Shown here one piece after another: positions 14,330-42,789 of a DNA stretch of 64,000 nt. The number at the start of each line of letters is the position of its first letter. Position 1 is the first letter of the stretch. Below the pieces are notes generated by a model. The model was not told the DNA's origin, made no database searches, and saw nothing but the letters and a program-made list of their open reading frames with translations. Both the position numbers and the translations under genes were made by a program. The DNA is from Escherichia coli. GTDB lineage: Bacteria; Pseudomonadota; Gammaproteobacteria; Enterobacterales; Enterobacteriaceae. The stretch lies in assembly GCF_016903815.1 (NCBI RefSeq), contig NZ_CP069974.1, one strand, 5' to 3'.

Positions 14330-14750
14330 GTATACCTCTTTATTTTCTTATCGCATCAAATTTATTTCACATATAAAAAAAAGACAATTCATCGATGAAT
14401 CGAATCGTGACGCAAGTTACGAAAATTACGATTCATGCAGCAAATCACATCACGAATTGAATCTAGAGTCAATTCGCTTTAACTCGTTGTTTTATTATTA
14501 CTGATTCATCTATGAGTTGTGTTAAATTCATTGGTGAATCATATGCGATTCACCAATGAATCCTTTTTATAATGTAAAATAAATTAAAATACATTATTTA
14601 AAACATAAGTTAATGATTCAAGTAGCAAATCAGCAAAAACTTGTTTTTGCGTAGTGTGTGGTGCTTTTGGTGGTGAGAACCACCAACCTGTTGAGCCTTT
14701 TTGTGGAGTGGGTTAAATTATTTACGGATAAAGTCACCAGAGGTGGAAAA
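14330..14750 (+). other. oriT: oriT (nic region, TraM/TraY/IHF binding region)
   Basis: GTAGTGTGT/GGTGCTTTTGGTGG at 14651-14673 is the R100/F-type nic sequence, with the predicted nick between 14659 and 14660 on the + strand. Inverted repeat TTGGTGGTGAGAACCACCAA at 14667-14686. TraM-type palindrome ATTCATTGGTGAATC-N6-GATTCACCAATGAAT at 14526-14561. Confidence 0.85.
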
Positions 14751-16496: not shown

Positions 16497-16784
16497 TCAG
16501 CAGATCGCCCGGATATCGAGGCCGGCACGCTTAATCTGACGCAGGAACTGTTTGAAGTGATCGGCTTCCGCAATGTTGATATGGCGGAACTGCTTATCCA
16601 CACCCTGACTGAGCGCGTAGCTATAACTGAAGGCCATCTTTTCCGGGTGGCTTTTGCGATATTTTTTCAGCTCAGTCAGGCTGCTGAATTCCAGGACGTC
16701 CCACTCTTCCCCGGTGTTTTTTTTCTTCCCGGCAACAAGAAGCGTGTACGACGCGGTGTTAACGTGGATATTTCGGGTACTCAT
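16497..16784 (-). CDS. yubO: YubO-like 95-aa leading-region protein
   Basis: 95-aa ORF with RBS GAGAGGAGAAAGCAGG before the ATG, immediately downstream (minus sense) of repeat A1. Confidence 0.65.
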   Translation of the reverse strand: MSTRNIHVNTASYTLLVAGKKKNTGEEWDVLEFSSLTELKKYRKSHPEKMAFSYSYALSQGVDKQFRHINIAEADHFKQFLRQIKRAGLDIRAIC

Positions 16785-16804
16785 CCTGCTTTCTCCTCTC
16801 TCTG

Positions 16805-17392
16805 GTTTTCAGCCCCCATCATCTGTTGAGTTTCGGGAGCCGCGGTTTTGACGTTTTGCGGGGACCTGCCTTTTGTTCCCTCCGGTATTCACCATCACCT
16901 TTTTGAGAACCTTCGCCGCAAGGGGCATCACTGCCACGGACGGAAACGACTGTCCGGGGGCAGACCGCAAAAGTTTTTGCCTGCTTCTGGGCAAAAAGTT
17001 TTGCGGGATGTGCATTTCACCCCTGGACTGGCGGAGACGGTTGTGGCTGTCTTTGCCCCCGGCGACAGGGGCTTAAACAGGTGAATGGCACCGGACAGAA
17101 CAACGGGCAGGGACCCGCCGCAACGACGTGAAGCGCGGTTTGCGAAACGGCGTTGCCCCTTACATCCCGGCGGTCTTTTGCCGGGATGCCAGGAGCGCAG
17201 GCCACGGCGCGACAGAGGCGGCGCGACCGGAACGGTCGCTGCAAGCCAGGGGTTTTCACGCATCGGACCGTAGCGACAGCCCGAAACCGCGCCAGCGGGT
17301 TCGGCGGAGACTGGCAGGTGCGCCAGCAGCTGCCTGTCGGAGTCGGGCCTGACGACCGGATGCCGCCAGGCAGCCGGGAGCCGAAGGTGCGC
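16805..17392 (-). promoter_or_regulatory. GC-rich leading-region hairpin repeat, copy A1 (Frpo/ssi-like)
   Basis: About 590 nt, nearly identical to 28590-29177 and diverged from 34284-34848. Outer arms 16840-16870 / 17106-17138 enclose an inner 17-bp hairpin at 16965-17006. Overlapping ORFs on both strands are taken as non-coding. Confidence 0.6.
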
Positions 17393-19735
17393 GTGCGACA
17401 GGAAGTCGCTTAACGTATTGTTTTACATTGATAAAACCAGCTATCCCATTAGCTGTAGCCTACCGGGACAGGCGTTGCCGGCAACGGCGGGGTCTGAAGC
17501 TCCCGGGACAACGAGAGCCGGGCGTCAGCCCGGGTAATGCCCCGTGAGGGGCTTTACCTTGCTGCAAGCATCATGCGGCAGGAGAGCAAGGCTGGTCAGA
17601 AGGGTTAACACATGTGAACTGTTGATAAACACCGTTATCGGCAACAGGCCAAAGATGCTGACAGGCCTGAACCAAAAGGTACGGGGTCCGGTTGCTACCT
17701 CGCGCACAGGGAGCACATGGGCGCAGAGACCCCCGGTGAAGAGACAGAACCCGCCCTGACCCTCTGTATGTTAAGCGGAACCTGGTAAACCCGTATCGCT
17801 GCCTCACAGGCAGGTGAACCGCAAGGAACACTGTTAGCGGTGCGGGCATAGGAGGACGGAAAAAGCGAATGCCCGGCTGTAATAACCGGGATACGGGGCA
17901 GGTTCCCCGACGCGAAAGCGGGCAGACTTCCGTCTGGTCTTTAATTGCATGAAAAGCTGTAAAGCAGTCAAAAGGATATCAGCGAGATGAATACACACAT
18001 CAGTGTGTCCACGATACCCCACCCGACAGGCTGGCACACCATAAACTGGAAAGCATGCCATGCCCGGGTGCGAAAGCTACAGTTACGGATTGCAAAGGCA
18101 ACCCGACAGCAACAATGGCGGCAGGTCAGAGAACTACAGCGCATCCTCACCCGCTCATTCTCCGGCAAAGCCGTGGCTGTCAGGCGTGTAACTGAAAATA
18201 CCGGTAAAAGGACACCCGGTATTGACGGAAAAATATGGCACACACCGAAGGAGAAATGGGAAGGAATATGCAGCCTGAATCTGTGTGGTTACAGGCCACA
18301 GCCACTACGGCGAATACATATCCCAAAATCAAACGGCAAAACGCGACCGCTGGGCATACCCACAATGAGGGACCGGGCCATGCAGGCACTGTGGCTGCTG
18401 GCTCTGGAACCCGTATCCGAGACCACTGCTGACCATAACAGCTATGGTTTCAGACCAATGCGCAGCACGCATGACGCCATTGAGTCCATTTTTCTGCGGA
18501 TGAGCCAGAAAGTATCGCCCAAATGGATACTGGAGGGCGATATTAAAGGGTGCTTCGATAACATCAGCCATGACTGGCTGCTTTCCCATATTCCGATGGA
18601 CAGGAGACTGCTTAAAAAATGGTTGAAAGCAGGTTACATGGAAAGAGGCGTGTTTAACCATACGAACAGCGGGACACCGCAGGGAGGCATCATATCCCCT
18701 GTTCTCGCCAACATGGCTCTGGACGGACTGGAGAAGGAACTGATGCAAACGTTCAGGAAAAGTGGTTATCACAGTGCAAAGCACCAGGTGAATTATGTGA
18801 GATATGCTGATGATTTCATCTGTTCAGGCAGCTCCCGTGAATTGCTGGAAAATGAGGTCAGACCACTGATTGCAGCTTTCATGCGCGAACGAGGGCTGGA
18901 ACTGTCGGAAGAAAAAACAGCGATCACACATATAGATAAAGGCTTCGACTTTTTAGGGCAGAACGTCAGGAAGTACAACGGTAAAATGCTGATTAAACCG
19001 TCGAAGAAAAACCTGAAGAACTTCCTCTGTAAAGTCAGAGAAATAATTAAACGCAATCCGACGCTCCCGGCATGGAAACTGATAGGCCAGCTAAACCCGG
19101 TGATCCGGGGATGGGCTACCTATCACCGACACGTCGTGGCGAAAGAAACATTTAATTATGTCGACACCCAAATCTGGCGAGCTATATGGCGATGGTGTGT
19201 AAGACGGCATCCCCGGAAAGGATTGCGGTGGATCGCCGGACGATACTTCTCCTTTGAAGGCAGGCGCTGGATCTTTAAAGCCATAACCCCGGAAGGGAAA
19301 ATTCTGACACTCTTCCGGGCAATGGAAACACCGATAAAGCGCCATATAAAAATCAAAGGCGAAGCAACACCATACACCCCCGGAATGGAAATCTACTTTG
19401 AACGTCGTCTGGATCTAATCTGGAAAGGCAAATCAAAGAAGATGAAGACAGTAGTTCAACTCTGGAAGAGGCAGGGGAAACACTGTCCGCAGTGCGGACA
19501 ACTCATAACCAACCAGACCGGATGGAATATACATCACCGGATCAGGAAAGTTATGGGCGGCAGTGACGAACTGACCAATCTCGAGTTGTTACATCCGAAC
19601 TGCCACCGACAGTTACACAGCAGGGAAGCCGGTGCTCACCGAAAGCACTTATAAAGGCTTGAGCGGAGTGCGGGGAAACTCGCACGCTCCGTTCTTAGGG
19701 GGCGGCGGCGCAGCAATGTGCCGCTGCTACCCGAC
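17393..19735 (+). mobile_element. group II intron, type 1, copy 1
   Basis: 5' end GTGCGACAGGAAGTCGC (an alternative GTGCGC lies 6 nt upstream). Domain IV ORF encodes RT-maturase-HNH. Domain V GAGCGGAGTGCGGGGAAACTCGCACGCTCCGTTC at 19661-19694. Domain VI has a bulged A 7 nt from the 3' end ...CTACCCGAC. Confidence 0.85.
17987..19654 (+). CDS. group II intron-encoded protein (RT, maturase X, HNH endonuclease)
   Basis: 555 aa with RT motifs TPQGGIISPVLAN and YVRYADDF. C-terminal CPQCG...HHRIRKVMGGSDELTNLELLHPNCHRQLH is HNH-like. Confidence 0.9.
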   Translation: MNTHISVSTIPHPTGWHTINWKACHARVRKLQLRIAKATRQQQWRQVRELQRILTRSFSGKAVAVRRVTENTGKRTPGIDGKIWHTPKEKWEGICSLNLCGYRPQPLRRIHIPKSNGKTRPLGIPTMRDRAMQALWLLALEPVSETTADHNSYGFRPMRSTHDAIESIFLRMSQKVSPKWILEGDIKGCFDNISHDWLLSHIPMDRRLLKKWLKAGYMERGVFNHTNSGTPQGGIISPVLANMALDGLEKELMQTFRKSGYHSAKHQVNYVRYADDFICSGSSRELLENEVRPLIAAFMRERGLELSEEKTAITHIDKGFDFLGQNVRKYNGKMLIKPSKKNLKNFLCKVREIIKRNPTLPAWKLIGQLNPVIRGWATYHRHVVAKETFNYVDTQIWRAIWRWCVRRHPRKGLRWIAGRYFSFEGRRWIFKAITPEGKILTLFRAMETPIKRHIKIKGEATPYTPGMEIYFERRLDLIWKGKSKKMKTVVQLWKRQGKHCPQCGQLITNQTGWNIHHRIRKVMGGSDELTNLELLHPNCHRQLHSREAGAHRKHL

Positions 19736-25868: not shown

Positions 25869-28529
25869 GTAGGGTAGGGTACGTGTGGTCTTTCAAGATA
25901 AATGGCGAATATGTCCTGCTTATCTTGAGTTAGATCACCGTTACCCCCCCTCCGAACCGTACGTGCACCTTTCAATGCATACGGCTCTCCATTGCTAGCT
26001 TATTGGGGATAAACTCATTTAGCAGAATCCCCACTTGAGACAGGTGGTTGCAGGAGTATTCTTCCCTTTTCCTGTCTCAGATCGGGTAGTTTTCCGCTAT
26101 GTAACTTGTCGTGGCAACTTGCGCACAAAATCATCGTTTTCCGGCGGCGTGCGATCATCATTAGTTGCCACAGGCTGGGTTTATATCCGGCCTTACGACC
26201 TTTCTTCAGGTCTTTTAGCTTTCTGACATGATGTACTTCGCAGCGCCCAGTCTTCGCACAATACTCGCAGATCCTTGCCCCTAATCGACGCATGATCTCT
26301 GTTGTGCGGGTTGTGATATGTGCGGTTCTCGGTTCCGTATCGACAATCGTTGTTCGGTTGCGATTGACATGTTTGAGTTTGAAAACCTCAATCTTTCGGG
26401 ATCCATTTTTGGCCTGAACGGTAATAGCCAGATCTCCATTATTTTGCCGTAGCGATTTGGCGACTTTATTCACTGAACTACGTCGTTTATTCGCTAGGGT
26501 CTTAAAAAGGCTTATTTGCCATATGAAATATAATTTTGATAATTTATATTTCATGTCCAGCGCCAGACTGTAGTAGTTCGCCAATCCGCGCATTTCCGCG
26601 TTGAAAGTCAGAACAATTTCAGCTTCACTGAGATTTTGTAGACTTGAACGATGTACAGCCTTCACATTCTCATAACAGCCATATTTCTTTTGGTGACAAA
26701 ATTTAGCGGCTATATTGTCAGGAACGAAGAGCTGCACAATTCCTGTGGTGGATCTCCGGAGAGCGTGCCGCCCTTGCATTTTCTGCTTCAGCAATTTCTT
26801 TGCATCTGCCTGTCTGATTTCATAGCCTAAAAAATTAACTCCTTCTGAGATATGGCGGATCCTGGTCTTTGCTTCATTAACTTCCAATCCCAGTGAAGTA
26901 GTAATAAAGTTTCTGACCTGTCTTGATATATGTTCAGCATCTTTCTTCGAGCCGATGACACCAATTACGAAGTCATCAGCATATCGAACATAGTACATAC
27001 GCCTGAAGTTTGGATCGTTCATGACCTGAGATGGTATAGAACGTTTTTCTTCAAGCAGTCGTTCAATTTCTTTCTTTATGGCTTCTTTTTCTGATTCAGA
27101 ATCAGTTGCCATACCGTCTACTTTCTTTCGTAGTTTATGAATCTTATGGGCCAGCCTGTTCATATCTGGATTCGCTCTTCGTTTTGTACCGCTTGTATAT
27201 GCAGGAATTAAGTTCTGTTCTACAAAACGGTCCAGTTTGTCGAGGTATATATTTGCCAGTAAGGGAGAAATTATCCCACCTTGTGGCGTGCCAGAATATG
27301 AGCGATGGTATTTCCAATTGTCCACATATCCTGCCTTCAGCCACTGTTCGATTAATTTCAGGAAATTCTTATCCTTAATTTTCTCTGCCAGTGTATTCAG
27401 CAATAGTTTGTGGGGGATATTGTCAAAGAAACCTTTGATATCAACATCCACGATCCATTTAACTCCGTTCCAGACTGGACGAATAGATCTGAGCGCAGTT
27501 TCACACGAACGTTTTGGTCTGAATCCATGAGAGTGTTCAGAGAATACTGGTTCATAAACCCTTTCCAGAATAATTCTTGCTACTTCTTGCGCCAGTTTAT
27601 CGTCTCCACCTGGAATCCCCAGCGGTCTGGTTTTTCCGTCCTTTTTTGGGATCTGAACTCTGCGTACAGGTTTCGCTACGTATTCTCTACTCCGCAATGT
27701 TTTTGCCAGCTTCTCTGCTCTTTCGATAGAGAAGCCATCAATGGTATCTGTTGATACACCTTGAGTCAGTGCACCTGCATTGGCCCGTATATTCACGTAG
27801 GCTTGCAGCCACAGTCCGGGCTCACACGCAATTTTGTATAGATTACGTACTGGATACCCTTTTTTTGAAGCATCCTCAATTCCATCTAATCTTTTCTCAA
27901 GTTCATCAGGCAGCATTGGCTAACCCTCCTCTTAGAGATTGATGTATCTAACAACTGTCTCCCTTCCCCGCAGCACTGTGAGGCTTTCATCTCCCTTCCG
28001 GTTGATTTATACCTTTGCTGCTTCCGTATAATGCGGACTGCCGTAGCCCATTACAGGCCGACCTTGAGTACTATGGAGACTCCGCTACCATGCTGGGTAT
28101 AAATCCAGTTTAGGTAGTCCCGTAGTTTCACGGTGTGGAGATGCGATGTACTTAGGATGTCTTTCGATCGTTTAACTATTTCATCAATAGCTGGCCCGTT
28201 AGAGTGGTCACAATCAACGTAGGGCGGATTTCTTGTGCTATTACGGGAATAACGCTTCAATCGTTCTGCGTTATTGGTTTCCTGTTTCCCACATAGATCT
28301 CGACTTCAACAAACCCAGTTTATCCATATACATCTTGCATTGAGTGGTGATACTTATAACGATTTCCGTATTCACCACCCTTTTCTGTGGATGCTATGTT
28401 CACCTCTCCTTTTCAGGATCTCCGAGCCTGTTACCAAGCGAGGCTAACCACAGTATGCAATGGCTATACCACTAAGCCATGTTGCTTTTCATGCAACACT
28501 CCATAAAACACCGCGCTTCAACGGCGCAC
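25869..28529 (-). mobile_element. group II intron, type 2, inside ssb (sense orientation)
   Basis: Minus strand begins GTGCGCCGTTGAAGCGCGG at 28529. Domain V GAGCCGTATGCATTGAAAGGTGCACGTACGGTTC is the reverse complement of 25954-25987. Ends ...CCCTACCCTAC at 25869. 2661 nt with an internal RT ORF. Confidence 0.88.
26015..27916 (-). CDS. group II intron-encoded protein (RT, maturase, HNH-like C-terminus)
   Basis: 633 aa with GTPQGGIISPLLANIYL and YVRYADDFVIGV, and C-terminal CEYCAKTGRCEVHHVRKL...CASCHDKLHSG. Confidence 0.9.
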   Translation of the reverse strand: MLPDELEKRLDGIEDASKKGYPVRNLYKIACEPGLWLQAYVNIRANAGALTQGVSTDTIDGFSIERAEKLAKTLRSREYVAKPVRRVQIPKKDGKTRPLGIPGGDDKLAQEVARIILERVYEPVFSEHSHGFRPKRSCETALRSIRPVWNGVKWIVDVDIKGFFDNIPHKLLLNTLAEKIKDKNFLKLIEQWLKAGYVDNWKYHRSYSGTPQGGIISPLLANIYLDKLDRFVEQNLIPAYTSGTKRRANPDMNRLAHKIHKLRKKVDGMATDSESEKEAIKKEIERLLEEKRSIPSQVMNDPNFRRMYYVRYADDFVIGVIGSKKDAEHISRQVRNFITTSLGLEVNEAKTRIRHISEGVNFLGYEIRQADAKKLLKQKMQGRHALRRSTTGIVQLFVPDNIAAKFCHQKKYGCYENVKAVHRSSLQNLSEAEIVLTFNAEMRGLANYYSLALDMKYKLSKLYFIWQISLFKTLANKRRSSVNKVAKSLRQNNGDLAITVQAKNGSRKIEVFKLKHVNRNRTTIVDTEPRTAHITTRTTEIMRRLGARICEYCAKTGRCEVHHVRKLKDLKKGRKAGYKPSLWQLMMIARRRKTMILCASCHDKLHSGKLPDLRQEKGRILLQPPVSSGDSAK

Positions 28530-28568
28530 TCCTACGAGAATGACCTTGTTAATGCCACGAACTGCCAT
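28530..28568 (-). CDS. ssb: plasmid ssb, exon 1 (codons 1-13)
   Basis: ATGGCAGTTCGTGGCATTAACAAGGTCATTCTCGTAGGA encodes MAVRGINKVILVG, preceded by RBS AGGAGG, and abuts the intron 5' GTGCG. Confidence 0.88.
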
Positions 28569-28589
28569 GATGTGCCTCCTTCTGTTGAT

Positions 28590-29177
28590 GTTTTCAGCCC
28601 CCATCATCTTTTGAGTTTCGGGAGCCGCGGTTTTGACGTTTTGCGGGGACCTGCCTTTTGTTCCCTCCGGTATTCACCATCACCTTTTTGAGAACCTTCG
28701 CCGCATGGGGCATCACTGCCACGGACGGAAACGACTGTCCGGGGGCAGACCGCAAAAGTTTTTGCCTGCTTCTGGGCAAAAAGTTTTGCGGGATGTGCAT
28801 TTCACCCCTGGACTGGCGGAGACGGTTGTGGCTGTCTTTGCCCCCGGCGACAGGGGCTTAAACAGGTGAATGGCACCGGACAGAACAACGGGCAGGGACC
28901 CGCCGCAACGACGTGAAGCGCGGTTTGCGAAACGGCGTTGCCCCTTACATCCCGGCGGTCTTTTGCCGGGATGCCAGGAGCGCAGGCCACGGCGCGACAG
29001 AGGCGGCGCGACCGGAACGGTCGCTGCAAGCCAGGGGTTTTCACGCATCGGACCGTAGCGACAGCCCGAAACCGCGCCAGCGGGTTCGGCGGAGACTGGC
29101 AGGTGCGCCAGCAGCTGCCTGTCGGAGTCGGGCCTGACGACCGGATGCCGCCAGGCAGCCGGGAGCCGAAGGTGCGC
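28590..29177 (-). promoter_or_regulatory. GC-rich leading-region hairpin repeat, copy A2 (Frpo/ssi-like), upstream of ssb
   Basis: Offset +11785 from A1, with only a couple of substitutions seen by eye. It starts 22 nt from the ssb ATG. Confidence 0.6.
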
Positions 29178-31520
29178 GTGCGACAGGAAGTCGCTTAACG
29201 TATTGTTTTACATTGATAAAACCAGCTATCCCATTAGCTGTAGCCTACCGGGACAGGCGTTGCCGGCAACGGCGGGGTCTGAAGCTCCCGGGACAACGAG
29301 AGCCGGGCGTCAGCCCGGGTAATGCCCCGTGAGGGGCTTTACCTTGCTGCAAGCATCATGCGGCAGGAGAGCAAGGCTGGTCAGAAGGGTTAACACATGT
29401 GAACTGTTGATAAACACCGTTATCGGCAACAGGCCAAAGATGCTGACAGGCCTGAACCAAAAGGTACGGGGTCCGGTTGCTACCTCGCGCACAGGGAGCA
29501 CATGGGCGCAGAGACCCCCGGTGAAGAGACAGAACCCGCCCTGACCCTCTGTATGTTAAGCGGAACCTGGTAAACCCGTATCGCTGCCTCACAGGCAGGT
29601 GAACCGCAAGGAACACTGTTAGCGGTGCGGGCATAGGAGGACGGAAAAAGCGAATGCCCGGCTGTAATAACCGGGATACGGGGCAGGTTCCCCGACGCGA
29701 AAGCGGGCAGACTTCCGTCTGGTCTTTAATTGCATGAAAAGCTGTAAAGCAGTCAAAAGGATATCAGCGAGATGAATACACACATCAGTGTGTCCACGAT
29801 ACCCCACCCGACAGGCTGGCACACCATAAACTGGAAAGCATGCCATGCCCGGGTGCGAAAGCTACAGTTACGGATTGCAAAGGCAACCCGACAGCAACAA
29901 TGGCGGCAGGTCAGAGAACTACAGCGCATCCTCACCCGCTCATTCTCCGGCAAAGCCGTGGCTGTCAGGCGTGTAACTGAAAATACCGGTAAAAGGACAC
30001 CCGGTATTGACGGAAAAATATGGCACACACCGAAGGAGAAATGGGAAGGAATATGCAGCCTGAATCTGTGTGGTTACAGGCCACAGCCACTACGGCGAAT
30101 ACATATCCCAAAATCAAACGGCAAAACGCGACCGCTGGGCATACCCACAATGAGGGACCGGGCCATGCAGGCACTGTGGCTGCTGGCTCTGGAACCCGTA
30201 TCCGAGACCACTGCTGACCATAACAGCTATGGTTTCAGACCAATGCGCAGCACGCATGACGCCATTGAGTCCATTTTTCTGCGGATGAGCCAGAAAGTAT
30301 CGCCCAAATGGATACTGGAGGGCGATATTAAAGGGTGCTTCGATAACATCAGCCATGACTGGCTGCTTTCCCATATTCCGATGGACAGGAGACTGCTTAA
30401 AAAATGGTTGAAAGCAGGTTACATGGAAAGAGGCGTGTTTAACCATACGAACAGCGGGACACCGCAGGGAGGCATCATATCCCCTGTTCTCGCCAACATG
30501 GCTCTGGACGGACTGGAGAAGGAACTGATGCAAACGTTCAGGAAAAGTGGTTATCACAGTGCAAAGCACCAGGTGAATTATGTGAGATATGCTGATGATT
30601 TCATCTGTTCAGGCAGCTCCCGTGAATTGCTGGAAAATGAGGTCAGACCACTGATTGCAGCTTTCATGCGCGAACGAGGGCTGGAACTGTCGGAAGAAAA
30701 AACAGCGATCACACATATAGATAAAGGCTTCGACTTTTTAGGGCAGAACGTCAGGAAGTACAACGGTAAAATGCTGATTAAACCGTCGAAGAAAAACCTG
30801 AAGAACTTCCTCTGTAAAGTCAGAGAAATAATTAAACGCAATCCGACGCTCCCGGCATGGAAACTGATAGGCCAGCTAAACCCGGTGATCCGGGGATGGG
30901 CTACCTATCACCGACACGTCGTGGCGAAAGAAACATTTAATTATGTCGACACCCAAATCTGGCGAGCTATATGGCGATGGTGTGTAAGACGGCATCCCCG
31001 GAAAGGATTGCGGTGGATCGCCGGACGATACTTCTCCTTTGAAGGCAGGCGCTGGATCTTTAAAGCCATAACCCCGGAAGGGAAAATTCTGACACTCTTC
31101 CGGGCAATGGAAACACCGATAAAGCGCCATATAAAAATCAAAGGCGAAGCAACACCATACACCCCCGGAATGGAAATCTACTTTGAACGTCGTCTGGATC
31201 TAATCTGGAAAGGCAAATCAAAGAAGATGAAGACAGTAGTTCAACTCTGGAAGAGGCAGGGGAAACACTGTCCGCAGTGCGGACAACTCATAACCAACCA
31301 GACCGGATGGAATATACATCACCGGATCAGGAAAGTTATGGGCGGCAGTGACGAACTGACCAATCTCGAGTTGTTACATCCGAACTGCCACCGACAGTTA
31401 CACAGCAGGGAAGCCGGTGCTCACCGAAAGCACTTATAAAGGCTTGAGCGGAGTGCGGGGAAACTCGCACGCTCCGTTCTTAGGGGGCGGCGGCGCAGCA
31501 ATGTGCCGCTGCTACCCGAC
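29178..31520 (+). mobile_element. group II intron, type 1, copy 2
   Basis: Same sequence and same insertion point as copy 1 (…GCCGAAGGTGCGC | intron | CCGGCAGACAGG…). Confidence 0.85.
29772..31439 (+). CDS. group II intron-encoded protein (RT-maturase-HNH), copy 2
   Basis: The 555-aa track translation is identical to copy 1. Confidence 0.9.
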   Translation: MNTHISVSTIPHPTGWHTINWKACHARVRKLQLRIAKATRQQQWRQVRELQRILTRSFSGKAVAVRRVTENTGKRTPGIDGKIWHTPKEKWEGICSLNLCGYRPQPLRRIHIPKSNGKTRPLGIPTMRDRAMQALWLLALEPVSETTADHNSYGFRPMRSTHDAIESIFLRMSQKVSPKWILEGDIKGCFDNISHDWLLSHIPMDRRLLKKWLKAGYMERGVFNHTNSGTPQGGIISPVLANMALDGLEKELMQTFRKSGYHSAKHQVNYVRYADDFICSGSSRELLENEVRPLIAAFMRERGLELSEEKTAITHIDKGFDFLGQNVRKYNGKMLIKPSKKNLKNFLCKVREIIKRNPTLPAWKLIGQLNPVIRGWATYHRHVVAKETFNYVDTQIWRAIWRWCVRRHPRKGLRWIAGRYFSFEGRRWIFKAITPEGKILTLFRAMETPIKRHIKIKGEATPYTPGMEIYFERRLDLIWKGKSKKMKTVVQLWKRQGKHCPQCGQLITNQTGWNIHHRIRKVMGGSDELTNLELLHPNCHRQLHSREAGAHRKHL

Positions 31521-33815: not shown

Positions 33816-34046
33816 TCAGTTAAAAGCGCGTTTCAGTTCGAGTGTGCGGAGCACCTGCCCGAAGGCCGTGTTTTTCATGGCGGGGATGTGTACACCACGC
33901 CCCCGGTGAAAACTCCGGGCAATGTGTCGCCCGAAGGCTTTCAGCACGGGGTCAATTTCCGGCGCGGGGATGTCTTCGCGTCTGAAACGGGGATGACGGC
34001 GGGGCTTTACAGCCGCTGCGGAAGGTGAAACAATACTTACTGTCAT
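33816..34046 (-). CDS. hypothetical basic 76-aa protein
   Basis: ORF with RBS AAGAGG 7 nt before the ATG. First gene downstream (minus sense) of repeat A3. Confidence 0.5.
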   Translation of the reverse strand: MTVSIVSPSAAAVKPRRHPRFRREDIPAPEIDPVLKAFGRHIARSFHRGRGVHIPAMKNTAFGQVLRTLELKRAFN

Positions 34047-34283
34047 AATTTAGCCTCTTATGACGTTAATTAATGAAACCGTAAAGACTGTTCGTGCAGT
34101 CTCTGCGGTGTGGATTAAGCAGGTCCCTGACCTGCTTTTTTCATATCTGCGTCTGACGTTCTCCGGTGTTTTCCTCCTTCTGTTCCTGCGTTCTCATTAC
34201 CTGCCAGCCGGATGACTGACAGAACACATAAATGCGTATTGCCGGAGCCTGAAATAAATCCTGATTTTTAAAGAACATCACCC

Positions 34284-34848
34284 GTTGAGTTTCGGGAGCC
34301 GCGGTTTTGACGTTTCGCGGGAACCTGCTGCTGTATACCCTGTGGTATGAACTTCACCCGTTTGAGAACCTTCGCCGCAAGGGGCATCACTGCCACGGCC
34401 TGACGCACCTGTCCTGGGCAGAACGCAAAATTTTTTACCGGGTTTTGGGTAAAAAATTTTGTGGGCTGTTCATTTACCCTGGACAGTCAGTGCGGCAGGT
34501 TGTGGCTGTATCAGCCCCAGGCGACAGGGACTCATACGGGTGTGTGGCACCGGCAGGCAATGAGCAGGGACCCGCCGCAACGACGGAGAGCGCGTGCGCG
34601 AAACGGCGTTGCCCCTTACATCCCGGCGGCCTTTTGCCGGGATGCCGGGAGCGCAGGCCACGGCGCGACAAGGGTGGCGCGACCGGAACGGTCGCTGCAA
34701 GCCCGGGGTTTTCACGCATCGGACCGTAGCGACAGCCCGAAACCGCGCCAGCGGGTTCGGCGGAGACTGGCGGGTGCGCCAGCAGCTGCCTGTCGGAGTC
34801 GGGCCTGACGACCGGATGCCGCCAGGCAGCCGGGAGCCGAAGGTGCGC
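34284..34848 (-). promoter_or_regulatory. GC-rich leading-region hairpin repeat, copy A3 (diverged)
   Basis: Alignable to A1/A2 along its whole length with many substitutions. The inner hairpin 34424-34463 keeps pairing through compensatory changes. The last approx. 75 nt before the intron are identical to A1. Confidence 0.55.
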
Positions 34849-37191
34849 GTGCGACAGGAAGTCGCTTAACGTATTGTTTTACATTGATAAAACCAGCTAT
34901 CCCATTAGCTGTAGCCTACCGGGACAGGCGTTGCCGGCAACGGCGGGGTCTGAAGCTCCCGGGACAACGAGAGCCGGGCGTCAGCCCGGGTAATGCCCCG
35001 TGAGGGGCTTTACCTTGCTGCAAGCATCATGCGGCAGGAGAGCAAGGCTGGTCAGAAGGGTTAACACATGTGAACTGTTGATAAACACCGTTATCGGCAA
35101 CAGGCCAAAGATGCTGACAGGCCTGAACCAAAAGGTACGGGGTCCGGTTGCTACCTCGCGCACAGGGAGCACATGGGCGCAGAGACCCCCGGTGAAGAGA
35201 CAGAACCCGCCCTGACCCTCTGTATGTTAAGCGGAACCTGGTAAACCCGTATCGCTGCCTCACAGGCAGGTGAACCGCAAGGAACACTGTTAGCGGTGCG
35301 GGCATAGGAGGACGGAAAAAGCGAATGCCCGGCTGTAATAACCGGGATACGGGGCAGGTTCCCCGACGCGAAAGCGGGCAGACTTCCGTCTGGTCTTTAA
35401 TTGCATGAAAAGCTGTAAAGCAGTCAAAAGGATATCAGCGAGATGAATACACACATCAGTGTGTCCACGATACCCCACCCGACAGGCTGGCACACCATAA
35501 ACTGGAAAGCATGCCATGCCCGGGTGCGAAAGCTACAGTTACGGATTGCAAAGGCAACCCGACAGCAACAATGGCGGCAGGTCAGAGAACTACAGCGCAT
35601 CCTCACCCGCTCATTCTCCGGCAAAGCCGTGGCTGTCAGGCGTGTAACTGAAAATACCGGTAAAAGGACACCCGGTATTGACGGAAAAATATGGCACACA
35701 CCGAAGGAGAAATGGGAAGGAATATGCAGCCTGAATCTGTGTGGTTACAGGCCACAGCCACTACGGCGAATACATATCCCAAAATCAAACGGCAAAACGC
35801 GACCGCTGGGCATACCCACAATGAGGGACCGGGCCATGCAGGCACTGTGGCTGCTGGCTCTGGAACCCGTATCCGAGACCACTGCTGACCATAACAGCTA
35901 TGGTTTCAGACCAATGCGCAGCACGCATGACGCCATTGAGTCCATTTTTCTGCGGATGAGCCAGAAAGTATCGCCCAAATGGATACTGGAGGGCGATATT
36001 AAAGGGTGCTTCGATAACATCAGCCATGACTGGCTGCTTTCCCATATTCCGATGGACAGGAGACTGCTTAAAAAATGGTTGAAAGCAGGTTACATGGAAA
36101 GAGGCGTGTTTAACCATACGAACAGCGGGACACCGCAGGAAGGCATCATATCCCCTGTTCTCGCCAACATGGCTCTGGACGGACTGGAGAAGGAACTGAT
36201 GCAAACGTTCAGGAAAAGTGGTTATCACAGTGCAAAGCACCAGGTGAATTATGTGAGATATGCTGATGATTTCATCTGTTCAGGCAGCTCCCGTGAATTG
36301 CTGGAAAATGAGGTCAGACCACTGATTGCAGCTTTCATGCGCGAACGAGGGCTGGAACTGTCGGAAGAAAAAACAGCGATCACACATATAGATAAAGGCT
36401 TCGACTTTTTAGGGCAGAACGTCAGGAAGTACAACGGTAAAATGCTGATTAAACCGTCGAAGAAAAACCTGAAGAACTTCCTCTGTAAAGTCAGAGAAAT
36501 AATTAAACGCAATCCGACGCTCCCGGCATGGAAACTGATAGGCCAGCTAAACCCGGTGATCCGGGGATGGGCTACCTATCACCGACACGTCGTGGCGAAA
36601 GAAACATTTAATTATGTCGACACCCAAATCTGGCGAGCTATATGGCGATGGTGTGTAAGACGGCATCCCCGGAAAGGATTGCGGTGGATCGCCGGACGAT
36701 ACTTCTCCTTTGAAGGCAGGCGCTGGATCTTTAAAGCCATAACCCCGGAAGGGAAAATTCTGACACTCTTCCGGGCAATGGAAACACCGATAAAGCGCCA
36801 TATAAAAATCAAAGGCGAAGCAACACCATACACCCCCGGAATGGAAATCTACTTTGAACGTCGTCTGGATCTAATCTGGAAAGGCAAATCAAAGAAGATG
36901 AAGACAGTAGTTCAACTCTGGAAGAGGCAGGGGAAACACTGTCCGCAGTGCGGACAACTCATAACCAACCAGACCGGATGGAATATACATCACCGGATCA
37001 GGAAAGTTATGGGCGGCAGTGACGAACTGACCAATCTCGAGTTGTTACATCCGAACTGCCACCGACAGTTACACAGCAGGGAAGCCGGTGCTCACCGAAA
37101 GCACTTATAAAGGCTTGAGCGGAGTGCGGGGAAACTCGCACGCTCCGTTCTTAGGGGGCGGCGGCGCAGCAATGTGCCGCTGCTACCCGAC
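34849..37191 (+). mobile_element. group II intron, type 1, copy 3
   Basis: Same ends and same insertion point as copies 1 and 2. Confidence 0.85.
35443..37110 (+). CDS. group II intron-encoded protein, copy 3 (G-to-E change in an RT motif)
   Basis: 555 aa, identical to copies 1 and 2 except TPQGGIISP becomes TPQEGIISP (GGA to GAA near 36139). Confidence 0.85.
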   Translation: MNTHISVSTIPHPTGWHTINWKACHARVRKLQLRIAKATRQQQWRQVRELQRILTRSFSGKAVAVRRVTENTGKRTPGIDGKIWHTPKEKWEGICSLNLCGYRPQPLRRIHIPKSNGKTRPLGIPTMRDRAMQALWLLALEPVSETTADHNSYGFRPMRSTHDAIESIFLRMSQKVSPKWILEGDIKGCFDNISHDWLLSHIPMDRRLLKKWLKAGYMERGVFNHTNSGTPQEGIISPVLANMALDGLEKELMQTFRKSGYHSAKHQVNYVRYADDFICSGSSRELLENEVRPLIAAFMRERGLELSEEKTAITHIDKGFDFLGQNVRKYNGKMLIKPSKKNLKNFLCKVREIIKRNPTLPAWKLIGQLNPVIRGWATYHRHVVAKETFNYVDTQIWRAIWRWCVRRHPRKGLRWIAGRYFSFEGRRWIFKAITPEGKILTLFRAMETPIKRHIKIKGEATPYTPGMEIYFERRLDLIWKGKSKKMKTVVQLWKRQGKHCPQCGQLITNQTGWNIHHRIRKVMGGSDELTNLELLHPNCHRQLHSREAGAHRKHL

Positions 37192-37423: not shown

Positions 37424-37615
37424 TCACCTGTTTCTGCTACCCTGTAAGATGTAGTGACCGCCCAGGAAAACCGCCTGCTGATTCGCCACAAAATCGCAGA
37501 TTTCATCAACAATCTGCGCGGTGGTGAGCGGTTTCTGCCCCATTTCACGACGCCGCGCATTAATCACGGCCCTGTAATTACGCAGAATTTCGCGGGTTTC
37601 TGTGCTGATATTCAT
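37424..37615 (-). CDS. hypothetical 63-aa protein
   Basis: The ATG overlaps the stop of the upstream DUF1380 gene (ATGA). Function not recognised. Confidence 0.45.
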   Translation of the reverse strand: MNISTETREILRNYRAVINARRREMGQKPLTTAQIVDEICDFVANQQAVFLGGHYILQGSRNR

Positions 37616-38034
37616 GACATCGTCTCCCCGTCCAGCGCCTGTAACACAACGTCCATTGCTTCGCGTTCCTCCCTGACGAATGCGTCACCGTCGCCCCCGT
37701 TCTCACTCCCGACGGCATACAGGCGCTTCATTTCACTGCCTGCCAGCGCCATCACTTTTTCCAGCATCACCGCCGGGACTGTCACCTGACGGCTGGCGCG
37801 CTTTTCTTCCATCAGTTCACGAACAACGCCGTGAACAACGCTGACATCCGCACCATATTCAAAGGCATCGTCCAGCCGCTGCATGACGGTTTCCAGCTCA
37901 TCGTCTGTCAGACTCCAGTCCTGGGCTATGTGACGCACATCCCCACGGGTCAGCACTACGGCAAAAACGCATTCACTGTCCGGCACGTCTGTATCCAGCA
38001 CTTCGCGGATAATTTCTTTAACAGTACAGTACAT
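37612..38034 (-). CDS. DUF1380-like protein (140 aa)
   Basis: MYCTVKEIIREVLDTDVPDSECVFAVVLTRGDVRHIAQDW.... Paralogous in layout to 39750-40184 (both contain ...RQVTVPA..L...). Confidence 0.55.
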   Translation of the reverse strand: MYCTVKEIIREVLDTDVPDSECVFAVVLTRGDVRHIAQDWSLTDDELETVMQRLDDAFEYGADVSVVHGVVRELMEEKRASRQVTVPAVMLEKVMALAGSEMKRLYAVGSENGGDGDAFVREEREAMDVVLQALDGETMS

Positions 38035-38080
38035 GTTCTCGTCTCCTTTACAGGGGCGGCATTGCCGCCCCGTCCGTTAA

Positions 38081-38506
38081 TCAGTCCAGAGCCGCGTAAA
38101 TCGCGTTGCATTCGGGGTGAAATTCGATGTGACGCCACAACTGCGCATCGCGCATCCGGTAAAGCTGGGTCAGTCCTGCATCCCCGCTGTCGTGGTACAG
38201 CCACAACTGGCGGTTAATCACAAGGGAGGTCAGGATGATGCCTGCGGCATCAGCACTCACGGTACGGTCAAACCAGTTTGCACCGTTCACCATGTGGAAA
38301 CGGTCGCCATCCGGCATCATGTAACCGCCACCGTCCGGCAGGCGGATGAAGTGCCAGAAGCCTCCCTGATATTCCGGCATCATTTTTTGCGCCAGCGCGT
38401 ACACATACGCCTCGGCATACAGAAAATCGTTGCCAAACAGATACGGCAGAAAGGAGAGACGGTCGCACTCTTCAACATTCAGAGTGACAGGTTTCGCATA
38501 TTGCAT
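38081..38506 (-). CDS. klcA: KlcA/ArdB-family antirestriction protein
   Basis: 141 aa [65 protein letters not shown].... Confidence 0.85.
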
Positions 38507-38548
38507 GATGTTTTCCTCCGTTGTTCACATATTCCGCGACACCGGGCG

Positions 38549-38774
38549 GTGCCGTGCCTCCATAAAAGCCGGGCGAACAGGCGGGGATGCAGGGGCGCAA
38601 GGGAAGCCGCAGCCTGACGCACACGGCTGACGGGAGTTGCAGGGTGAGACCGCGAAATCTGAGCGGGTGAACGACCGGAAAATCACGGCAGACGGGAAGG
38701 AGGGACCGGGTGACCGCAGCGGCGAAGCGTACCCTTGCATCAACGCCAGCCCGGCTAAGATGGAGGCACGGCAC
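38549..38774 (-). promoter_or_regulatory. Frpo-like single-strand promoter hairpin B1 upstream of klcA
   Basis: 15-bp perfect basal stem GTGCCGTGCCTCCAT / ATGGAGGCACGGCAC. The 3' arm carries TTGCAT (38735-38740), N15, then TAAGAT (38756-38761). AAG of the -10 faces AAA on the 5' arm, giving a 3-nt bubble. The base lies about 45 nt from the klcA ATG. Confidence 0.55.
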
Positions 38775-38922
38775 AGCCCGCACACGACGCTGAGGCCACA
38801 TAACTGAAAAACCACAAGGCCATGCCCTGCATGGCCGGGTAAAGCGGAGCCGGCGGCGACTTCCTTTGTGCTCTGTCCGGGGACCGGCAGGAAAAAGGCG
38901 GGGATTTACCCCGCCAGTGTCA

Positions 38923-39750
38923 TCATTTCCGGATTTTTGCCAGGGCATCCGCCATGCTGCGGATTTCGGTCCGGGCTTCCCGGACCACCTCCCGCAGAAC
39001 ACCACGGTCAAACCAGCGGCGGGGCGGTTCATCCGGTATACGCAGCACATCGCAGGCCAGCCCACTGGACAGGATATGCTCAATACACTCACTGACCAGA
39101 TACATTTCCACCGACGAAAAACGTGCTCCCCGGTTCACGATGGCATCGAGCACCACGGGCAGGTTTTCGTCATCTTCATCGAGCCAGCAGGGGTGATCGC
39201 TTTCCTTCACGACCAGGCGAAAGCGGCGCGTCTGGCGGGTCAGCAACGTCTGACCGGTGGTGGTCAGCGCCGCACGGATACGCCGCGCATCTTCTGCCAC
39301 CTGGTAACAGATGCTTCGTACCGCATCGTGCACCGCATCAAGAACAGCCCTGATTTCGTCTTCGGTCAGCCATTCTCCGGCATACGGGAAAGACACCTGC
39401 GTTCCGTCTGCCGGAAGTACCGGCAGCGACTGCCACTGACTGCCGGACAGTACCAGTTCCGCCCCGGTTCCGGTCAGTCTCTGAATGGCGGAGGCCAGGA
39501 GCGGCGGCAGTACGCCGCCGTGACGGTTGATAAGTAACGTCGCCAGCCGGGGCGCATCCAGCCGCACGTAAATGCTGATCCAGCCCGGATAGTTCGGATT
39601 TCGCTGGTCAACATCCGTCTCTTCCGGCCAGCCCTGCGCCAGCAGCAGGTTACGGGCGTGACGACAAATCAGTGCGTTCAGCGTGCTGTTTTCGTTCATG
39701 ATTAAGCGTTCTCCCTGTATCGCCGCCCGCAGGGCAGGCGGCGATAACAT
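38923..39750 (-). CDS. hypothetical protein (275 aa; alternative start 39699 gives 258 aa)
   Basis: The ATG at 39750 overlaps the upstream stop (TGATG). The alternative [11 protein letters not shown] start has RBS GGGAGA. No motif recognised. Confidence 0.55.
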
Positions 39751-40419: not shown

Positions 40420-41103
40420 TTACGCAGCCTCCGGCATAAACCAGTCATCATTCGCGGCCCCCTGCTGCATGGCCCGTTGCACGGCGGCAAGGCGTTGCTG
40501 CCCGGCACGGTGATACTGCTCAAGCAGCTCGATACCGATATACCGGCGTCCGGACTGGAGGGCGGCGACGCAGGTTGAGCCGCTGCCTGCAAACGGGTCC
40601 AGCACAATTGCGTTCGGGTGTGTGAAGCTCTCAATCAGCGGTTGCAGGCTGGTAACGGGCTTTTCCGTCGGGTGATGACGATTGCCAGAATATTTCCAGC
40701 CCAGCACGTCCGGCAGCGGGTTTTGTGGCAGACGTGGACGGCCTTTTGCCAGGATGTAGGCGCATTCGTGGCGATAGCCCACATATGCGGCCTTCGATGT
40801 GTAGTTTTTGGTGAAGACCAGGTGACCAACAACGCTGAATCCCGCATTTTTCCAGGCGGCCATAAAGCGATCGACGCGGTTCCAGCCGTAGAAGCTCACC
40901 ATCAGCGCGTCTTTTTTGAGTACGCGGTACATTTCATTACAGGCCGGTTGCAGCCATTCATCGGTTTTATCGCCGGCGATGGTGCGCCCGGAACGGTCAC
41001 GAAAACCGACGAGATATGGCGGGTCAGTTAATATGAAATCAATGGCGTTATCAGGGATACGCGTCATAACATCGATGCAGTTACCAAGGACAAAACGGGA
41101 CAT
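40420..41103 (-). CDS. orphan DNA methyltransferase (beta-class N6A/N4C, DPPY)
   Basis: 227 aa with motif IV ILTDPPYL early and motif I VLDPFAGSGSTCVAA late. No cognate endonuclease is present. Confidence 0.85.
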   Translation of the reverse strand: MSRFVLGNCIDVMTRIPDNAIDFILTDPPYLVGFRDRSGRTIAGDKTDEWLQPACNEMYRVLKKDALMVSFYGWNRVDRFMAAWKNAGFSVVGHLVFTKNYTSKAAYVGYRHECAYILAKGRPRLPQNPLPDVLGWKYSGNRHHPTEKPVTSLQPLIESFTHPNAIVLDPFAGSGSTCVAALQSGRRYIGIELLEQYHRAGQQRLAAVQRAMQQGAANDDWFMPEAA

Positions 41104-41487
41104 AACAACGCTCCTTCTCTTACAGAGGGCACCGGGAGGGCCCCCCTGTGGTGCCCGTTCCCCGCTGCCTGTGGGCTGTTCACCGCGTCCGGTAACGGGT
41201 CAGGCCGACCGTGGAATATCGCAGCCGTCGTCTTTTTGACGGCGAGAATATGCCGCGAAAGCGGCTTGAAGGGCGTTCATCAGAAAAGGGCGACAGGCTG
41301 GCGTACACTGTCACCGGTGCCAGCCGGGAGCAGTAAAAGCGCCCGTCCCGTGCCCGCCGGACGCGGGACACTGACCACAGGCAGCGTTCCTGCCGCGCCG
41401 CGTCAGCCGGCGCAGTAAAAAGAGGAGCACGGCGACATCCTTTGTCGGAAAAGAAACGGGCGGTTGCCCGCCCGTCTCCGTCATACT

Positions 41488-42414
41488 TCATCCCCCGTAA
41501 TGCGCCACCTTGTCGACTATCCACTCCGGCGCGGTGACTTCCGGCAGCTCATCATCATCTGTCGGGGAAGACCATTCCAGTTCCCCCCACAGCACATCAA
41601 CAAGCTCTCCACGCTCATATCGCTGCCAGCCACAGAAATTGCAGCCCTGTTCGGCGTACCAGTGCTCCAGCGTGCAGCCGAAACGGCGGCTTAATTCTGC
41701 AACAACGTTGCTTTCCGGCTGACACCACGGCGTGTCGAAATCCACTTGAATGAAGTTTTCTCCCTGACGGCTGATATTCACCTCATACCCCACAGGCCAC
41801 TTCACGCCATACTGTTCCGTATACCAGTGATACGCAGAAGGAACACCGTTCAGAACACCACCGTTAAAGCCATTCACTTCAACATCCAGGCGGGTGGGCA
41901 GAACCGTCAGCAGGTCAAACGGCATGGTTTTTTCCGGCAGTACATTGTCACACAGACGGTTCCACCACACCGATACATCCTCGTTACTCCAGAAGCCACA
42001 CCAGTCACCTCTTTTTGCGGTGAAATGCACGGTGATGGTTTCCCTGACCTCATCCGGTAATCCTTCCCAGCGACGCTGGCCAGTACCACTCTGCAGCCAG
42101 AGTTCATGCAGCATCAGGCAGTTTTGCTCATCCAGCAGTACACCGTTCTGCAGGTGTGTCAGCCAGCGGGTGAACGCGATATTCTCCGGCGATACAACAC
42201 CACGTCCGGCATCCGTCAGTCCGGGGCACGGTTCAAACTGCACATCTTCAGTGGTCTGCAGAAGTCCGGCACTTCCGGCCAGAAACAGCTGAATACCTTC
42301 ATTTGTGGCGCGGCGATAAAGCGGTGTGACGGCACCGCTGGCCAGTCGTTTAATCTCAGCAATCTGTGCCGGTTCACCAGAAAAATGCATACGATTCGAG
42401 CACCAGTTTGGCAT
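41488..42414 (-). CDS. DUF1281-like protein (308 aa)
   Basis: Start MPNWCSNRMHFSG with RBS GAGAGGAG. The track ORF adds 15 upstream codons. Confidence 0.55.
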   Translation of the reverse strand: MPNWCSNRMHFSGEPAQIAEIKRLASGAVTPLYRRATNEGIQLFLAGSAGLLQTTEDVQFEPCPGLTDAGRGVVSPENIAFTRWLTHLQNGVLLDEQNCLMLHELWLQSGTGQRRWEGLPDEVRETITVHFTAKRGDWCGFWSNEDVSVWWNRLCDNVLPEKTMPFDLLTVLPTRLDVEVNGFNGGVLNGVPSAYHWYTEQYGVKWPVGYEVNISRQGENFIQVDFDTPWCQPESNVVAELSRRFGCTLEHWYAEQGCNFCGWQRYERGELVDVLWGELEWSSPTDDDELPEVTAPEWIVDKVAHYGG

Positions 42415-42446
42415 GGGAATTCTCCTCTCACATGCGGCCTCCATCA

Positions 42447-42607
42447 GGCCGTGCCGCACCTGTAACCGGGCGACCGCATACGAATGCAGGTGCGGCCCCG
42501 AAGCCGCAGCGCGTGGAGGAGGAACGACGAAACGTGACCGGGTGAGGAGGCCGGCGACAGCGACACACTTGCATCGGATGCAGCCCGGTTAACGTGCCGG
42601 CACGGCC
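42447..42607 (-). promoter_or_regulatory. Frpo-like single-strand promoter hairpin B2 upstream of the DUF1281 gene
   Basis: Arms GGCCGTGCCGCACCTGTAACCGGGC... / ...GCCCGGTTAACGTGCCGGCACGGCC. The 3' arm carries TTGCAT (42569-42574), N15, then TAACGT (42590-42595), with a bulge opposite the -10. Homologous to B1. Confidence 0.5.
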
Positions 42608-42789
42608 TGGGTAACCAGGTATTTTGTCCACATAACCGTGCGCAAAATGTTGTGGATAAGCAGGACACAGCAGCAATCCACAGCAGGCATACAACCGCAC
42701 ACCGAGGTTACTCCGTTCTACAGGTTACGACGACATGTCAATACTTGCCCTTGACAGGCATTGATGGAATCGTAGTCTCACGCTGATAG

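Follow-up and report, generated by a model that had tools for sequence, protein, structure and literature searches.

The window, i.e. the whole stretch of 64 kb that was analysed, represents an F-like (IncF) conjugative plasmid. Its gene order, as annotated in one identical plasmid and in F itself, runs from traM and oriT through a transglycosylase gene to the leading-region genes. These are on the - strand and include hok, psiB, ssb, methyltransferases, a DUF1380 gene, an antirestriction gene, yffB and a DNA methylase; DUF1281, sopAB and repE are found beyond them. A nic-like site (GTAGTGTGTGGTGCTTTT, positions 14651-14668 on the + strand) adjoins traM, and was compared with the nic sequence of F. 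With this site on the + strand and the leading genes to the right of it on the - strand, the strand transferred is the + strand, which also serves as the template for klcA. Going by this layout, the + strand enters the recipient with its 5′ end first, from about 14.66 kb.

The antirestriction gene (38081-38506, - strand) is of the klcA/ardB/yfgB type. This is based on a match to Pfam PF03230 (Antirestrict; E = 1.5e-26) and on the annotation in identical plasmids. It is the first gene of the operon that the element described below would drive, and the DUF1380 gene (37612-38034, - strand) is the second; the latter is known from the open reading frame list and from annotation, and has a Pfam DUF1380 match below the curated cut-off. 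The start of klcA is 37 nt from the base (38543) of a long hairpin on the + strand, which occupies 38543-38780.

Two terminator-like stem-loops on the - strand precede the hairpin. One, formed by GGCCATGCAGGGCATGGCC and then TTGTGGTTTT, is found just upstream of the hairpin at 38818-38836, in a conserved module shared with the copy upstream of ardA. The other (38897-38915) is directly 3′ of yffB, whose stop codon is at 38923-38925. A consensus scan of positions 38000-39000 revealed no sigma-70 duplex promoter for klcA on either strand, and an ordinary duplex promoter was therefore rejected as the element that drives the gene. With two terminator-like hairpins after yffB and no duplex sigma-70 promoter, klcA requires a promoter of its own.

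Structure and promoter motifs of the klcA hairpin

The hairpin is a palindromic sequence of 238 nt with a GC content of 67%, compared with 51% for the 64-kb window, and it is the longest inverted repeat within the 29-kb leading region. It is supported by the inverted repeat, by DNA folding, by covariation and by homology. The basal stem consists of 15 bp with no mismatch. Its 5′ arm, or template half (GTGCCGTGCCTCCAT, 38549-38563), contains the predicted template start base T38555, and pairs with the 3′ arm, or non-template half (ATGGAGGCACGGCAC, 38760-38774), which holds a GGCACGGC box at 38765-38772 and the predicted +1, A38768. Below the basal stem, five extra pairs (38543-38547 with 38776-38780) are situated beneath a 1-nt bulge. 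Above it is a 3-nt bubble, where AAA (38564-38566) is opposite AAG (38757-38759), and then a single A-T pair (A38567 with T38756). The pair map continues with a 7-bp GC stem between the -10 and -35 boxes (GCCGGGC at 38568-38574 with GCCCGGC at 38749-38755), a -35 stem (GATGCA at 38586-38591 with TGCATC at 38736-38741) and a G.T wobble (G38592 with T38735). Internal loops on the template arm at 38576-38580 and 38584-38585 might relax the promoter geometry. The first-pass annotation had described the basal pairing, the GC and -35 stems and the AAG/AAA bubble within TAAGAT; the stems are all found as described, and the bubble is unpaired in the MFE fold.

Folding of single-stranded DNA, a check that had been proposed beforehand, predicts a stable hairpin. 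The + strand from 38530 to 38800, folded as ssDNA, yields -71.6 kcal/mol, compared with -53.7 ± 3.6 kcal/mol for shuffled sequences (z = -4.99), and none of 200 shuffles is as stable. Base-pair probabilities of the key pairs are 0.74-1.0. The complementary strand has a weaker fold (-63.9 kcal/mol; z = -4.4).

Read 5′ to 3′, the 3′ arm displays TTGCAT-N15-TAAGAT, as had been claimed. The -35-like hexamer TTGCAT is at 38735-38740 and the -10-like hexamer TAAGAT is at 38756-38761, and the bubble is inside the latter, whose AT (38760-38761) is paired in the fold. TTGCAT matches the sigma-70 -35 consensus at three of six bases and the 15-nt spacer is short for sigma-70; thus the -35 assignment is less secure than that of the -10. 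From the position of the -10, the start is predicted 7 nt past it at A38768, opposite template T38555, and this gives klcA a predicted mRNA leader of 49 nt (38507-38555, - strand). A GGAGG ribosome-binding site is found at 38519-38515, 8 nt ahead of the klcA ATG. These predictions agree with the earlier proposal of a transcription start about 45-50 nt before the ATG with a ribosome-binding site. The exact +1 and the hexamers in the klcA copy are predicted features that are backed by conservation.

Transcription had also been proposed to run out of the hairpin base into klcA, with the 3′ arm as non-template strand, and this is supported by the finding that the + strand is both the transferred strand and the klcA template. 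The alternative geometry, with the 5′ arm as non-template strand and transcription toward the loop, was considered and rejected: a TAnnnT with a usable -35 is lacking from the 5′ arm, and it is the 3′ arm that carries the conserved T, A and T of the -10.

In the duplex form, the non-template strand for klcA reads CTGCAT-N19-TTTTAT. This has no A at -11 and its spacing is wrong, and thus the duplex promoter should be off. The arms differ at key -10 positions, with AAG on the 3′ arm as against TTT where the 5′ arm is in duplex form, which points to a switch: the hairpin would be the active state and the duplex the inactive one. This reading of a switch is our own and comes from comparing the sequences of the two arms.

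Conservation among plasmids

Many E. coli and Klebsiella plasmids carry the 1-kb stretch around the hairpin at 100% identity. At approximately 90-100% identity, at least 5,000 plasmid records, of IncF and IncI plasmids, match the element. When diverged copies of Klebsiella michiganensis and of Buttiauxella served as the two BLAST seeds, thousands more plasmids were found. These are from Klebsiella, Enterobacter, Citrobacter, Serratia, Yersinia pestis (pMT), Cronobacter, Kosakonia and Edwardsiella. The diverged homologues span at least nine genera, and base pairs are kept via compensatory changes. In the copies fetched, the element always ends just ahead of where a gene on the same strand begins, be it klcA/ardB, ardA, a DNA methylase or a hypothetical gene.

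Fourteen copies were aligned in the transferred-strand orientation, with a mean identity of 57%. The consensus hairpin has 45 pairs, 22 of which show compensatory double changes. Standard pairs make up 94.9% of the cells, compared with 85.0 ± 0.8% in shuffled alignments (none of 500 reached the observed value) and 32-40% when partners are slid by 1-3 columns. Likewise, 22 pairs are changed on both sides versus 10.6 ± 1.8 after shuffling (again 0 of 500) and at most six after sliding. An example is the central pair of the GC stem, where a compensatory flip from G-C to C-G is found in five of the 14 homologues. On the template arm, alignment columns 44, 46 and 47 are invariant, and columns 43, 45 and 48-50 each vary in one sequence. 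Four homologues lack the apical 55-60 nt, and thus the conserved core is the basal stem. Judged by this alignment, the hairpin is under strong structural selection. It should be pointed out that Watson-Crick covariation is strand-blind, and alone does not tell whether the hairpin forms in + strand DNA or in RNA of the complementary transcript. Wobbles offer a weak indication: G.T occurs in 21 cells over nine columns versus eight cells over seven columns for A.C, a bias that slightly favours folding of the transferred strand over that of its complement. The gap in folding energy between the two strands (-71.6 versus -63.9 kcal/mol) is modest as well.

The promoter motifs show a distinct pattern. 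T38756, A38757 and T38761 of the -10 are invariant across the 14 homologues, where the variants TAAGAT, TACGAT, TAACGT, TAAAGT, TACAGT and TACGTT are found; positions 1, 2 and 6 are fixed and positions 3-5 vary. In a sigma-70 -10 element, positions 1, 2 and 6 are expected to be constant, with the middle three free to vary. TTGC of the -35 is present at the aligned position in 11 of the 14, and the GGCACGGC box is intact in the same number. The spacer is 15 nt in 12 copies, 14 nt in one, and 20 nt in a variant from Klebsiella. The three positions of the bubble are mismatched in 13 of the 14 homologues, with both sides changing in sequence, and the duplex-form -10 has no A at position 2, also in 13 of the 14. 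A mismatch that is conserved, together with a duplex form that has no A at -11, would explain the on/off switch. Frpo of F, according to what Masai and Arai reportedly found in 1997, requires mismatches in its -10.

Relation to published single-strand promoters

The klcA hairpin is very probably a single-strand-DNA promoter of the class 2/ssp2/Frpo3 type. The promoter function of this type of hairpin is already known, as the element was published in 2025-2026 in F and IncI1 plasmids. Wen et al. (2025; NAR gkaf1299, PMC12672017) mined hairpins in pESBL and termed those 5′ of klcA and ardA ‘class 2’. They describe these as ssDNA promoters without homology to Frpo/ssi. All starts were mapped by 5′ RACE and agree with predictions, and the F operon that encodes a KlcA homologue was induced in transconjugants (Wen et al., 2025).

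The copy in F has been termed ssp2 by Fraikin et al. (2026; bioRxiv 10.64898/2026.01.09.698686). According to this preprint, ssp2 is located between yffB and yfgB and controls yfgB (ArdB/KlcA), which is 93% identical to ArdB. The authors report that complementary-strand synthesis stalls at the end of the ssp2 stem and that UvrD relieves the stall. This stall is insensitive to rifampicin, and is therefore independent of transcription. Deletion of ssp2 impaired transfer into restricting hosts: it was reduced by 21-fold to undetectable levels in four non-isogenic E. coli recipients, and the losses in transfer were 36-fold against EcoGIII and 5-fold against EcoKI (Fraikin et al., 2026). A third report arrived independently at this F element from folds of the sequence upstream of ardB, and gave it the name Frpo3; it is given there as 86% identical to a candidate of Samuel et al. 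(2024) (bioRxiv 10.1101/2025.04.03.647016).

The klcA hairpin shows approximately 96% identity to F upstream of yfgB/ardB, and to the regions upstream of klcA and ardA both in an IncI-gamma plasmid and in ColIb-P9 (IncI1). ColIb-P9, which belongs to the same Inc group, stood in for pESBL in this comparison. With F ssp2 and class 2 in general, the hairpin shares its place, i.e. between yffB and klcA/ardB/yfgB in the leading region and on the transferred strand, and the order of the genes agrees with that of F. The published ssp2-specific primer was located in yffB, approximately 280 nt upstream of the F hairpin. The hairpin thus has the attributes of class 2: homology, a site on the transferred strand of the leading region upstream of an anti-defence gene, and a stable stem-loop that rebuilds -35 and -10. 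Both are long, GC-rich hairpins with -35 and -10 boxes, and the basal stem is identical to that of F. There is one difference. Positions 38742-38743 are AA here but CC in F; two pairs of the spacer stem are therefore open, and the fold is approximately 11 kcal/mol less stable than that of the F copy. Because of this weaker fold, the strength of the roadblock may differ from that in F. The AA variant is common, and is found in at least 880 plasmids at 99% identity or better.

Class 1 comprises Frpo (Frpo1) and Frpo2 of F and ssi1-3 of ColIb-P9 (Masai and Arai, 1997; Couturier et al., 2023, PMC9849209). The first-pass annotation had called the klcA hairpin Frpo-like. This holds for the geometry and the working principle: as in class 1, the transferred strand folds and rebuilds -35 and -10, so that host RNA polymerase transcribes the leading genes before the complementary strand is made, with the duplex form silent. 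It does not hold for the sequence family. Samuel et al. (2024) set a BLAST E below 1e-6 as the threshold for class 1 homology, and a blastn comparison (word size 7) of the hairpin with F Frpo1 and Frpo2 revealed no homology (best E = 0.28-0.97), whereas between Frpo1 and Frpo2 the match is 89% over 559 nt. The hairpin is thus Frpo-like in mechanism only: a stem-loop that presents the boxes, with a sequence outside class 1. It is also smaller (approximately 240 nt versus 328 nt for the published Frpo; PMC7690428) and more GC-rich than class 1. In addition, Fraikin et al. (2026) distinguish class 2 (F ssp2), which acts as a roadblock, from class 1, whose transcripts prime DNA synthesis.

The following mechanism can be proposed. 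During conjugation, the + strand would enter the recipient alone, and the palindrome at 38543-38780 would fold into a long hairpin whose lower 45 bp mimic a duplex promoter. The 3′ arm would serve as the non-template strand with TTGCAT-N15-TAAGAT, in which the A at -11 and the next two bases would already be unpaired, and the 5′ arm would serve as the template. Host sigma-70 RNA polymerase would start at about T38555 and leave through the hairpin base, transcribing the 49-nt leader, klcA and then the DUF1380 gene, such that the anti-restriction protein would be made ahead of the complementary strand. Synthesis of that strand would then produce CTGCAT-N19-TTTTAT as non-template and turn the promoter off. 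If this hairpin behaves as the one in F, it would also stall complementary-strand synthesis at its base until UvrD unwinds it, and the DNA nearer to oriT would stay longer in a single-stranded, expressing state. For the klcA copy itself, the structure, the evolutionary conservation, the strand logic and the orthology to published elements are observed. Activity confined to ssDNA has been reported for the F and pESBL orthologues, as have mapped starts for pESBL and the stall relieved by UvrD for F; by analogy, these would extend to this copy.

It might be asked whether the hairpin is purely structural, i.e. a replication roadblock and/or a priming site for the complementary strand, with klcA transcribed from elsewhere and the hexamers incidental. 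The element is very GC-rich and stable, and in F the orthologue does stall complementary-strand synthesis at the stem end in a rifampicin-insensitive manner (Fraikin et al., 2026). But the invariant T, A and T of the -10, the bubble that is kept, and a TTGC on one arm would be superfluous for a pure roadblock; moreover, no other promoter was found in the region scanned and terminators are present upstream. Wen et al. mapped starts at the class 2 hairpins themselves (PMC12672017). Furthermore, when ssp2 was replaced by ssp3, another ssDNA promoter that lacks roadblock activity, type II restriction was again evaded, which argues that promoter activity itself matters (Fraikin et al., 2026; bioRxiv 10.64898/2026.01.09.698686). 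A purely structural role is considered improbable.

The structure could also act at the RNA level, as a leader, attenuator or processing signal on a read-through transcript of the yffB operon. The complementary strand folds well too (-63.9 kcal/mol, z = -4.4), and, as pointed out, Watson-Crick covariation is blind to the strand. Such a transcript would, however, have to pass two terminator-like hairpins between yffB and the element, G.T wobbles favour the + strand (21 versus 8), and promoter motifs on one arm and a conserved mismatch have no obvious role in an RNA. An Rfam scan of 14000-44000 found no family at the hairpin, the matches elsewhere being only to group II introns and AS-pc01. The published deletion and 5′ RACE data also fit a promoter (PMC12672017; bioRxiv 10.64898/2026.01.09.698686), and we regard a role in RNA as very improbable. 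That the inverted repeat is a product of chance or a functionless relic, e.g. a remnant of a mobile element, can hardly be credited: palindromes are generally abundant in plasmids, but nothing further speaks for this, and it is contradicted by a fold with z = -5, by the 5,000 or more matching plasmid records and by covariation in at least nine genera. A single-strand promoter of class 2 thus remains the preferred reading.

The earlier claim of a single-strand promoter attached to an antirestriction gene is therefore borne out by conservation, by the strand geometry and by published experiments on orthologues, but it is not new. As the function has been worked out experimentally in F and pESBL, the finding at klcA adds no new biology. 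The comparison adds modest support, in the form of compensatory changes in the stem, the invariant T, A and T of the -10, and a bubble conserved as a mismatch. Single-strand promoters are of broader importance in that anti-restriction, anti-SOS and methylase genes are expressed in the first minutes after entry, before the DNA is double-stranded. Through this early expression, they are a control point in how resistance plasmids spread.

Related hairpins and group II introns in the window

The core TTGC-N17-TA-N3-T-N3-GGCACGGC has only two occurrences in the 64 kb; each is on the + strand, within the 3′ arm of a hairpin that precedes a - strand operon. The second is in a shorter hairpin of 165 nt (42445-42609, + strand), approximately 30 nt before the DUF1281 gene (ATG at 42414), the first gene of an operon that also has a hypothetical gene and a DNA methylase. 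The core here is TTGCAT-N15-TAACGT-N3-GGCACGGC at 42569-42606, with a predicted +1 at the A in GGCACGG. Compared with the klcA hairpin, it is much shorter and has a different apical part, and the arms are approximately 76-78% identical. This region is 99% identical to ColIb-P9. The hairpin may be the published class 3/ssp3 promoter, and if so, class 3 is related to class 2.

The basal stem could perhaps be one portable module, with class 2 and possibly class 3 forming one superfamily; this is a tentative view to which we give slightly less than even confidence. The module may consist of TTGC-N17-TAnnnT-N3-GGCACGGC on the 3′ arm, with positions -11 to -9 obligatorily unpaired and a 15-nt spacer, and may be common to the klcA, ardA and 42445-42609 hairpins. 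It may also be present before methylase, ardA and unknown genes in plasmids of Yersinia, Citrobacter, Enterobacter, Serratia, Cronobacter, Kosakonia and Edwardsiella. In the module shared by klcA and ardA, the terminator-like stem-loop comes first and the end is approximately 20 nt before the ribosome-binding site, such that the portable unit looks like a terminator followed by a single-strand promoter. If this is true, the superfamily spreads by recombination as a terminator-plus-promoter cassette, and the conserved mismatch and short spacer define the rules of a promoter that is active only in single strands. In the Salmonella IncI-gamma/K1 plasmid CP082435.1 (5148-21939), a tandem duplication comprises the 8.7-kb block that runs from klcA to ardA. 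Its junction is inside the class 2 module, which points to recombination between the copies upstream of klcA and ardA.

A third long hairpin with 30-nt arms (41163-41386, + strand) is found 60 nt upstream of a DNA methylase gene (ATG at 41103). Folding of 41104-41420 gives -87 kcal/mol (z = -4.65). The hairpin overlaps an open reading frame annotated as hypothetical in related plasmids, and no clear hexamers were found in it. It is a candidate for another single-strand promoter or for a structural element.

The window contains three class 1 copies of the Frpo1/Frpo2 type (16767-17255, 28552-29040 and 34276-34711), each carried in a repeat of approximately 590 nt; F has two. The third copy is ahead of DUF3560 and methyltransferase genes. 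Just oriT-proximal to it, i.e. downstream in the sense of the leading genes, is an Rfam match to AS-pc01, the antisense RNA of plasmid pHK01 (98.9 bits; 34041-34140, + strand).

One group II intron of 2,342 nt is present in three copies on the + strand (17393-19734, 29178-31519 and 34849-37190). Each copy starts with 5′ GTGCGAC, has Rfam matches to D1-D4 and to domain V/VI, and encodes a 555-aa protein with RT, maturase and HNH domains. The insertion site is common to all copies and is at the distal edge of each of the three class 1 (Frpo-type) repeats. The copies are carried by the transferred strand and run antisense to the leading genes. The intron boundaries were fixed against plasmid pEcIMT16316, which lacks this intron, and the exon-intron junction is found in at least 1,010 plasmid records. 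Another group II intron, the fourth and of a different kind, is at 25869-27916 on the - strand. It encodes an ltrA-type reverse transcriptase of 633 aa (26015-27916) and matches domain V/VI at 25869-25989; this one is also present in pEcIMT16316.
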